The position numbers were made by a program, and so were the translations under genes. Below the pieces are notes generated by a model that worked only from the letters and a program-made list of their open reading frames with translations, was not told the DNA's origin and searched no databases. Shown piece after piece: positions 15,001 through 16,671 of a DNA stretch of 64,000 nucleotides (position 1 is the stretch's first letter; each line of letters starts with the position of its first letter). The DNA lies in the NCBI GenBank assembly GCA_964291405.2, contig OZ219926.1, forward strand, positions 3,968,001-4,032,000, written 5' to 3'. This DNA is from Thermodesulfobacteriota bacterium. Its GTDB lineage: Bacteria > Desulfobacterota > Binatia > Bin18.

Positions 15001-16654
15001 TGGGCAAGGTCTCAACCCGCGTGCGCGAGGCTGGCTGCGGTTCATTTGGGATAAGGCCACCACCCAAGACGACTGGAGCAGTAGCGGTGAGCCACTCCCC
15101 TGGTGGGATCGAACGACCACCCCGCCGATGTGTGCGTTTCCTCGATTCGACCTATCCGAAACGTCATACGCCCTGCCGCTCATGGCCGACCAGACTCCGG
15201 CGTGGCGTGAGGTCTATACGCGTATCGCCGATGAGTTGGTGGGTCGCTATGTCACGTATTGGGGCGCCGTCGACTGGCTGACCTACATCGGCCACGACCC
15301 ACATCAGGATACATACCCACCGGAATGGCTGGTCTTTATGCCTGAGCATGTGCGCGGGCGCTACGATCCGCCGGGCTGGACTGCCAACGGGGTCGCGCCC
15401 TGGGGTCTTCAGCCAGACCCTATAGGCGCGGATGGCAATCTCTTTTTTCGTGGGTTTTTTAATTTGTTGCTCGGCACGTACTCCTATGTCTCGGGTGACA
15501 ATAAATGGGAAAAGCCGTTCCAGGTCACGGGATATAACGATCGTCTGTTCCAATGGACACAGCATGGTATCTCTGAGTTTCTGGAAGACCAGTGGTCTGA
15601 GCGCCCGCAGGGGCCGCAATGCGAAAACACGAAAATTTGGCCATACTGTCTGAGTGCGGCAGGTTTGAGCCTGCAGTTGCATGACAAGATCTTTGACGGC
15701 AAGACGCATTGGGTCTACGACCGATGGATTGAGTTTGCGAAGAAGCACTTCACCGCTCGCAACGCTCGTGGAGATATTGCGTCGTTCGCGTTTTATTATG
15801 ATCCACTCGAAGAATTCGCTTACGCACCGCCGACTGGTTTAAGCGGTTTGTCGATGCTCGCCCCGTTATTCTATTTATATCCTCAGGCCCCGGAGTTTGG
15901 CTTAGCGCTGTATGAGGCCGGGGTACGGGACCTTGGCTGGAACGACACCAAAAAGTCTCTGGTGCAGGCATTTGACGACCCACGCTGGCTGACCATGACG
16001 TTAATGCTGGCGCGCGAGGTTGGAGACGTGACCACAGAGAAGCGTCTCAAAGCCGTGGCGGAAAAAGAATACGGGCCAGATTTCTTTGCCGACGACGAGG
16101 ATCGCTTTGCCTGGACGTTTGGGTTGGATGAACCCCATCCCCGTGGTCAGCTGAACGGCTTACTGATCTTGAGCGAGATCGGCGGGCCTGGAGCATGGAC
16201 GAATGTGTATAAAGGAAAACATGACGCCCAGTTTGAGCTACCCACAGTAGAAGGTGTCGACTTTCCGAATCTGGGAATTTGTGAGGCGCGGAATGAGGTC
16301 ACCGACGGGACGTTGCATGTCTCAACCTACGCCGCCACTGCGGCGCGCCGTGGGGAAGCGACACGTTGGAAGGTGACGCAACTCCCGGACCCGAAGGCTG
16401 TACAGGTGTATTGCGATGATGAGCAGTACAGTGACTGGGGTATAATCGACGATCACACTATTGAGATCAACTCAACCATTGCATCGCACAATTTCCGGAT
16501 TGTTGGTGTGACCGTAGGAAATACGACAAACGGGGAGCGAAGCGAAAAAGGAGCAAGTGCGGGTGGAGGGGCACCCAGCGGTAGTGCCGCAACTGCAGCG
16601 GAAACCGACACACACTATCAGCCAGCCGCACCTCCGAGTTGAAGTTGTTGTTGA
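14993..16654 (+). CDS. Linalool dehydratase/isomerase (LinD)-family protein with a probable C-terminal U-S-C-C tail (ends 16642 if the TGA is a stop)
   Basis: DPIGADGNLFFRGFFNLLLGTY and GPQCENTKIWPYC resemble LinD motifs; Gly/Ala/Ser linker then TGA AGT TGT TGT TGA plus a hairpin. Confidence 0.7.
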
Positions 16655-16671
16655 GCGGTGGTGCCGCTCGA
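16651..16671 (+). promoter_or_regulatory. Putative bacterial SECIS element for TGA 16640-16642
   Basis: TTGAGCGGT-GGT-GCCGCTCGA; G-initiated loop 17 nt after the UGA. Confidence 0.55.

Follow-up and report, generated by a model that had tools for sequence, protein, structure and literature searches.

The stretch of DNA analysed here, referred to as the window, comprises 64,000 nucleotides from a Thermodesulfobacteriota bacterium of the class Binatia (assembly GCA_964291405.2, contig OZ219926.1, positions 3,968,001 to 4,032,000 of the forward strand). It carries a gene related to linalool dehydratase/isomerase (Ldi, LinD), in which an in-frame TGA close to the 3' end is very probably decoded as selenocysteine (Sec, U), giving the predicted enzyme a short C-terminal tail of Sec and cysteines. 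On direct reading of the plus strand, the open reading frame starts at ATG 14993, with GGAGGA located 5 nt 5' of the start codon, runs to the in-frame TGA at 16640-16642, continues through AGT TGT TGT (16643-16651) and ends at a second TGA (16652-16654). The predicted product consists of 549 residues followed by U-S-C-C, and its end reads ...HYQPAAPPS-U-S-C-C-stop. The gene is composed of the following features:

14993..16654, plus strand: whole Ldi-like gene (direct reading; Pfam PF18566)
14993..16504, plus strand: body of the protein, residues 1-504, an (alpha,alpha)6 barrel with a C-terminal beta domain at about 418-504 (Pfam, AlphaFold2, Foldseek)
15620..15649, plus strand: Cys210 (15620-15622) to Cys219 (15647-15649), motif C-ENTKIWPY-C, counterparts of Ldi C171/C180 (alignment)
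16505..16639, plus strand: flexible linker (residues 505-549) with the conserved HYQPAAPPS at its end (composition, model confidence, homolog comparison)
16640..16642, plus strand: TGA probably read as Sec, residue 550, aligned with the first Cys of the CxCC of homologs
16643..16651, plus strand: tail codons Ser-Cys-Cys, residues 551-553 (conservation in orthologs)
16652..16654, plus strand: true stop TGA inside the 5' arm of a hairpin, kept in 15 of 15 orthologs, downstream of which the sequences diverge with indels
16651..16671, plus strand: hairpin of the bacterial selenocysteine insertion sequence (bSECIS) type, arms 16651-16659 and 16663-16671, loop GGT 16660-16662

An earlier note on this DNA had placed the product in the LinD family and had described a Gly/Ala/Ser/Thr-rich linker of about 40 residues, followed by the frame PPS-TGA-AGT-TGT-TGT-TGA and a hairpin with GGT. 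Direct reading confirmed the frame and the hairpin. The linker was found to be 45 residues long with 62% G/A/S/T, and its sequence and length vary between homologs. The family assignment was upheld by Pfam, in which Ldi was the sole family matched (PF18566, 41.2 bits against a cut-off of 26.1, E 1.9e-10, residues 141-362), and a PDB profile search matched Ldi at E 1.3e-9. No model of NCBIfam release 20 matches the protein. An AlphaFold2 model built on 112 homologs reached a mean predicted local distance difference test score (pLDDT) of 85.1 and a predicted TM-score (pTM) of 0.87, with residues 512-555 at a pLDDT below 50. When this model was searched with Foldseek, the top 26 ranks were all occupied by Ldi chains (TMt 0.65-0.72, the best of them at E 5.6e-12, TMt 0.68-0.72 and 16-18% identity), and GH127 enzymes appeared among the weaker fold neighbours. 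In the PDB profile alignment Cys210 and Cys219 coincide with C171 and C180 of Ldi, a residue numbering consistent with how PDB titles name the mutants. Both cysteines are invariant across the 112 aligned homologs.

The C-terminal tail was compared in the 120 best database homologs as listed and in 80 genomic loci fetched with their DNA. The latter were collected by the pattern CENTK[IV]WP, which by design excludes forms with TGA at Cys210. CxCC forms the C-terminal end of 68 of the 120 listed proteins, and a further 44 that do not end in CxCC have CC within the last 14 residues, many of the homologs ending in ...SCCG, ...CCAxx or similar. Six others end in ...PPS or ...PPG, exactly at the place of the TGA, and the remaining two are a fragment and a protein with a longer extension. 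Since the database proteins of the TGA clade end at ...PPS, standard annotation drops the tail, as had been anticipated. The 80 genomic loci comprise 32 ending in CxCC, 24 with CC in the last 12 residues (together 56 Cys tails), 14 in which the frame continues past a TGA into a short tail with Cys and then reaches a stop, eight tail-less loci from actinobacteria, and two that run off the contig. By these comparisons the predicted protein belongs to a large, highly conserved subfamily, usually equipped with a long disordered linker and a C-terminal CxCC or CC cluster, which was found in Gammaproteobacteria, Actinomycetota, Nitrospira, Acidobacteriota, Myxococcota and Binatia.

Within the genus of the window, 14 of 15 orthologs have TGA at the tail position (ten USCC, one USCG and three USSC) and keep the pattern TGA-AGY-TST-KGT-TGA together with the hairpin. 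The fifteenth reads TGC at this place (CSCC) and has no hairpin. USCC was also read in one further genome beyond these 15, and at least one in-frame Cys after the TGA is kept in every TGA-form ortholog. Nucleotide identity of the 14 TGA-form orthologs to the copy in the window amounts to 0.83 in the linker and 0.95 in HYQPAAPPS, and rises to 0.976 in the 15 nt formed by TGA, three codons and TGA, the most conserved local stretch, in which three of 15 columns vary and no indels occur. Further 3', the identity is 0.91 in the rest of the hairpin, 0.84 in the next 33 nt and 0.49 in the following 33 nt. This profile suggests, weakly when taken alone because the orthologs are close kin, that coding constraint extends past the UGA.

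The predicted hairpin has 9 bp, a GGU loop and a folding energy of -13.2 kcal/mol, with the G of the loop 17 nt past the UGA. It starts one base 5' of the true stop, which lies within its 5' arm, and its remainder is 3' of the coding sequence. Five of 1000 mononucleotide shuffles folded as stably. The main text of PMC13188914 describes a bSECIS model with a loop of 3-9 nt, a stem of 4-16 bp, a G in the first two loop positions, a distance of 16-37 nt from the UGA and a minimum free energy of at most -7.5 kcal/mol, values within which the tail hairpin falls. The hairpin is kept in 14 of 14 TGA-form same-genus orthologs. RNAalifold on 11 orthologs found eight pairs, none of them broken, one of which changes from U-A to C-G in a compensatory manner in two sequences. 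The same distance was measured in the convergent gene at 16804..17436 on the minus strand, coding for an AhpD-like protein of the carboxymuconolactone decarboxylase (CMD) type, as the earlier note had stated: its in-frame TGA (17169-17167, motif C-H-Y-U) is followed by a GUU loop 17 nt downstream. The AhpD-like product matches TIGR01926 (118.6 bits), with a weaker, partial match to the CFYUT-type (seleno)protein model NF041238. It represents a known selenoprotein family with an internal Sec in a CxxU motif, with which the Ldi-like gene has the UGA-to-loop spacing in common. An Rfam scan of 16400-17400 at E<=10 gave no match, a result of little weight as no bacterial SECIS family was noticed among the hits. 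An intrinsic terminator was also considered for the hairpin, and a simple scan of 16300-17000 called none.

The genome encodes SelA (524.7 bits) with an adjoining tRNA-Sec (tca), SelB (wing domain, E 5.9e-22) and SelD (308 bits against a cut-off of 125). The selD match (L003, G000:C3:39564-40481) lies in an open frame of 759 residues, far longer than a plain SelD, which suggests a fusion protein. The earlier note had named the homologs' tails, a Cys/TGA interchange and the Sec machinery as the places where its proposal could fail. A CxCC or CC near the C-terminus was found in 112 of the 120 homologs, the interchange is seen in the TGC of the same-genus ortholog and in the alignment with the first Cys of CxCC, and selA, selB, selD and tRNA-Sec are all present.

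A TGA also occurs elsewhere in the family. The same genome contains, outside the window, a paralog of about 40% identity at C3:2006963-2008471 (L107:2437-3975). Its two catalytic Cys places both read TGA (...GSH-U-ENTKVWPL-U-LTV..., U-x8-U) in 16 of the 17 loci examined, which span at least three genera, and the remaining locus (L113) reads Cys...TGA. The paralog is devoid of a Cys tail and has a DUF169 gene directly 3' (L107:4006-4722). Each of its UGAs is followed by a candidate SECIS hairpin. That of the second has 6 bp and a GGUCU loop 18 nt past the UGA (-9.2 kcal/mol), and the stem predicted for the first carries an apical loop that lies 24 nt past this UGA and contains the second. With the exchange of TGA and Cys in the tail and the TGA codons at the catalytic pair of the paralog, all three chalcogen positions show Sec/Cys interchange. 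In addition, a distant homolog in a metagenome-assembled genome (MAG) labelled Alcaligenaceae (L070:1846-1920) ends in ...APKGG-TGA-CCG-AGT-TGC-TAA (U-P-S-C), followed by a 7-bp hairpin whose loop, GUC, lies 21 nt past the UGA. SelA was found in this genome on contig fragments. The predicted Sec tail of this unrelated lineage is independent of that in the genus of the window.

We consider it very probable that UGA 16640-16642 is decoded as Sec. What doubt there is stems from the mere three codons past the UGA, from the close kinship of the orthologs and from a conclusion drawn from sequence. The other possibility is that the UGA is an ordinary stop, the genus having lost its Cys tail through a change of TGC to TGA so that the protein ends at Ser549, with the hairpin as a transcript-end or stability element. 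Gene callers do end the protein at ...PPS in six of the 120 database proteins, and the eight tail-less loci demonstrate that relatives without a tail are viable. Several facts weigh against Sec decoding on the same side. The 14 TGA-form orthologs are 91-100% identical at the protein level and their conservation is therefore partly shared descent, the coding constraint rests on few sites because only three codons lie 3' of the UGA, four of the 15 orthologs (USCG, USSC) retain just one of the two terminal Cys, a GC-rich hairpin right 3' of a gene could serve transcript-end functions, and the decoding is deduced from DNA and not from selenium detected in the protein. A plain stop is nevertheless hard to reconcile with the 15 nt past Ser549 being the most conserved, free of indels in 14 orthologs, next to a flank that falls to 0.49 identity, and with the constant retention of an in-frame Cys. 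The hairpin geometry fits the bSECIS model and the neighbouring AhpD-like Sec gene, the terminator scan was empty, and the Cys-form ortholog has no hairpin. Moreover, TGA, tail and hairpin recur together in an unrelated lineage, and the same family has TGA at two other Cys places in the same genome. An ordinary stop therefore appears quite improbable.

Directly upstream lies a gene for which the name partner is used here:

14395..15000, plus strand: partner gene, 201 residues, hydrophobic N-terminal helix and SCP2-fold domain, its stop overlapping the ATG of the Ldi-like gene

In 72 of 81 loci a homologous open reading frame immediately precedes the Ldi-like gene on its strand. At least one of the nine loci without it (L070) has just about 230 nt of upstream flank. 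It is the only neighbour conserved across phyla. Ten partner proteins had no match in Pfam at E<=10, and no NCBIfam model matches the partner protein. Its AlphaFold2 model (pLDDT 82) had UbiJ-SCP2 6h6o as best Foldseek match (E 9.2e-6, TMt 0.64), followed by other SCP2 proteins. By inspection of its N-terminus the partner protein looks membrane-anchored. Together with the Ldi-like gene, the partner gene constitutes an undescribed two-gene module that occurs in many phyla.

With Ldi of Castellaniella defragrans (PDB 5G1U, 5HLR, 5I3T) the Ldi-like protein shares PF18566, the (alpha,alpha)6 barrel (TMt about 0.7) and the aligned Cys pair. It differs from Ldi in its low identity (16-18%), in Phe at the places of M125 and H129, and in possessing an extra beta domain, the 45-residue linker, the U/CxCC tail and the SCP2-fold partner gene. 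Ldi is periplasmic (PMC6013536), whereas the N-terminus of the Ldi-like protein has, by eye, no hydrophobic signal-like stretch, and the protein is regarded as a probably cytoplasmic member of the Ldi family.

A model for the function of the tail is offered by flavoenzymes with a mobile C-terminus. High-relative-molecular-mass thioredoxin reductase (TrxR) carries a C-terminal Gly-Cys-Sec-Gly arm and MerA a C-terminal Cys-Cys arm, and each arm is considered to move to and fro between a dithiol in the interior and the exterior of the enzyme. Sec/Cys interchange, in turn, typically marks redox-active or nucleophilic Cys. Like the Ldi-like protein, these enzymes have a flexible C-terminal arm with adjacent chalcogens, in TrxR with Sec near the end. 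Unlike them, the Ldi-like protein is an alpha barrel without a domain for FAD or NADPH, in which Pfam finds Ldi only. The eukaryotic SECIS of TrxR resides in the 3' untranslated region, whereas the Ldi-like gene would depend on a bacterial UGA and bSECIS. The resemblance would lie in the mode of working and does not extend to family membership.

In the proposed mechanism, the 9-bp hairpin with its GGU loop 17 nt past the UGA would be recognised by SelB carrying Sec-tRNA(Sec), leading to Sec insertion, after which Ser-Cys-Cys would be translated and termination would occur at the second UGA within the stem. Without Sec insertion, a folded product ending at Ser549 and lacking the chalcogen cluster would be expected. 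The U-x-C-C arm would represent a mobile selenol/thiol centre exchanging with the buried Cys210/Cys219 pair. It would either re-reduce or resolve the pair or hand over a soft electrophile, and would itself be serviced from outside. The SCP2-fold partner suggests a hydrophobic substrate, possibly isoprenoid, a lipid that the partner would deliver. The visit of the arm to the Cys pair is inferred by analogy with the generally known arms of TrxR and MerA. Such a relay fits with properties of Ldi, which is sensitive to O2, depends on a reductant and has two catalytic Cys acting as acid/base or via a covalent thioterpene intermediate (PMC6013536). Whether the arm acts on the Cys210/Cys219 pair is, in our estimate, an even matter. 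A Sec-tailed Ldi-family enzyme with a U-x-C-C arm serving this pair is, as a whole, the best explanation and one that we regard as moderately probable.

The action of the arm also has its counter-evidence. The AlphaFold2 monomer leaves the tail undocked. The eight tail-less loci keep the same Cys pair, and the fold can therefore do without the arm. The places of the Ldi active-site residues M125 and H129 are, in the PDB profile alignment, occupied by Phe (F151, F155). The Ldi-like protein therefore represents a distant subfamily and not an Ldi orthologue, and its chemistry may differ from that of Ldi. A complex prediction of the core (1-508) with the tail (514-553), based on the alignment of the Cys-form ortholog, gave a score of 0.00 without controls and is counted neither for nor against binding.

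Two further readings accept the Sec and assign the tail another task. In the first, the CxCC/UxCC arm would bind a metal or metalloid and hand it off, in the manner of MerA or of a metallochaperone, and would not operate as a disulfide/selenenylsulfide relay. Clustered Cys at the tip of a flexible arm would suit this task, as would the many homologs ending in ...SCCG or ...CCAxx, tail ends that resemble the C-terminal CC of MerA. GH127 enzymes, which use a Cys/Zn site, are among the weaker fold neighbours. On the other hand, the neighbourhoods of the 81 loci compared share no conserved metal-handling gene, the SCP2-fold protein being the only widely conserved neighbour, and the Sec/Cys interchange at the catalytic pair of the paralog points to nucleophile or redox chemistry. 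Metal hand-off is thus unlikely, although less so than an ordinary stop. In the second, the tail would be covalently modified or would act as a tethered substrate, for instance in S-alkylation or prenylation by the barrel itself, instead of working as a catalytic arm. A disordered linker with a terminal CC or CxC resembles the prenylation tails of eukaryotic Rab proteins, and the barrel has a terpene-binding fold. Yet a costly Sec in place of a mere attachment Cys, in two lineages, is hard to rationalise, and the neighbourhoods of the 81 loci share no conserved transferase, which leaves this reading with very little probability.

For the tail-less forms, the neighbourhood offers a lead. A gene of the DUF169 family (PF02596), which has several conserved Cys, stands beside six of eight tail-less loci (L094-L096, L101, L104 and L105) versus 11 of 70 tailed ones, and DUF169 may take over the role of the tail in trans. 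As the kin are not independent, this association is a lead only.

Among 201 genomes of the class, 20 match the Ldi-like protein at E<=1e-50, and the Sec tail is restricted among them to the genus of the window. Three other families of the class have Cys tails (...CAAPCC..., ...CSCCANP and ...CPCCAGMA). The class-genome loci and the named-MAG loci probably overlap, and their counts are not additive. In a tree of 20 of the 120 proteins, rooted by midpoint only, the Cys-form ortholog is nested (support 84/86 and 85/94) among proteins that without exception stop where the TGA lies. It follows, under this midpoint rooting, that Sec and Cys were exchanged on more than one occasion, and the exchange may have run either way. 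The protein of the window is 77-80% identical to proteins of MAGs labelled Gammaproteobacteria versus 45-58% to those of other Binatia families, which hints at lateral transfer of the Ldi-like gene. In one Cys-form homolog (L059:5657-5680, ...PPSCACC), the stop and the bases that follow read TGA AGT TGT T, ten bases identical to those of the Sec codon and the beginning of the tail in the window. The match may be chance or a trace of a Sec-form origin.

The other surroundings of the gene are local to the genus. The AhpD-like gene adjoins the Ldi-like gene only within the genus of the window (12-13 of 81 loci). Genes at 11933-14328 and 17539-19967 code for a family III CoA-transferase, a luciferase-like monooxygenase, a sulfite-oxidase-type molybdoenzyme with a small haem c protein, and a short-chain dehydrogenase/reductase. 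None of these is a conserved neighbour of the Ldi-like gene beyond the genus. Between the two convergent genes lies an extra segment of about 107 nt (16707-16815), flanked by the 15-nt direct repeat ACTTCTCAAGCCGCC. It is absent from several orthologous loci, and other genomes have a related insert at the same place. A multi-copy mobile element was considered for this segment, and blastn of the genome found a single copy, the segment itself.

A C-terminal Sec has a precedent in bacteria, the KCU-star family. Its name is read here as indicating Sec as the last residue before the stop, in which case its SECIS also lies past the coding end. The family is unrelated, and the Ldi-like tail differs in having three residues past the Sec and the stop inside the SECIS stem. 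KCU-star (NF033934) is listed with the motif CU in the 2026 catalogue review (PMC13188914).

The earlier note had also stated that no Sec-containing LinD family was known. This holds for the literature searched, and has to be amended for the genome itself, in which the paralog provides a second Sec-containing form of the Ldi family. Literature searches returned no paper joining linalool dehydratase with selenocysteine, nor Binatia with selenocysteine. Of 31 papers mentioning both selenoproteins and linalool, the ten listed were unrelated, a search on the homologs and cysteines of linalool dehydratase gave reviews, and one on DUF169, SCP2 and Binatia gave nothing relevant. The main texts of the 2026 catalogue review (PMC13188914) and of the deep-Sep paper (PMC12013277) do not mention linalool, Ldi or dehydratase, and their supplements could list more families. 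The predicted selenoprotein family is absent from the catalogue texts searched and from the NCBIfam models.

In a wider and rather doubtful reading, to which we nonetheless give slightly more credit than to metal hand-off, the subfamily would consist of enzymes that depend on chalcogens and convert a hydrophobic substrate of isoprenoid type, rather than of plain hydratases. Three catalytic positions, the barrel pair and the tail, would each be open to Cys or Sec, the tail would serve as a built-in TrxR/MerA-like shuttle, and DUF169 would do the same in trans for the tail-less forms. The selenium supply would switch the enzyme between an armed (USCC) and an unarmed form ending at Ser549. If this were true, the fold would perform a new kind of thiol/selenol-driven lipid chemistry.

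The Ldi-like gene adds a probable selenoprotein family, not contained in the catalogue texts searched, from an uncultured phylum, and its tail is of a kind that gene callers systematically miss. The Sec/Cys interchange at three positions singles these residues out as those that do the chemistry in an enzyme of wide distribution. With its SECIS across and beyond the stop codon, the predicted arm would be a naturally occurring bacterial equivalent of the Sec arm at the C-terminus of animal thioredoxin reductase, and it provides concrete residues and constructs for working out the function of Ldi-like enzymes and their SCP2-fold partners.

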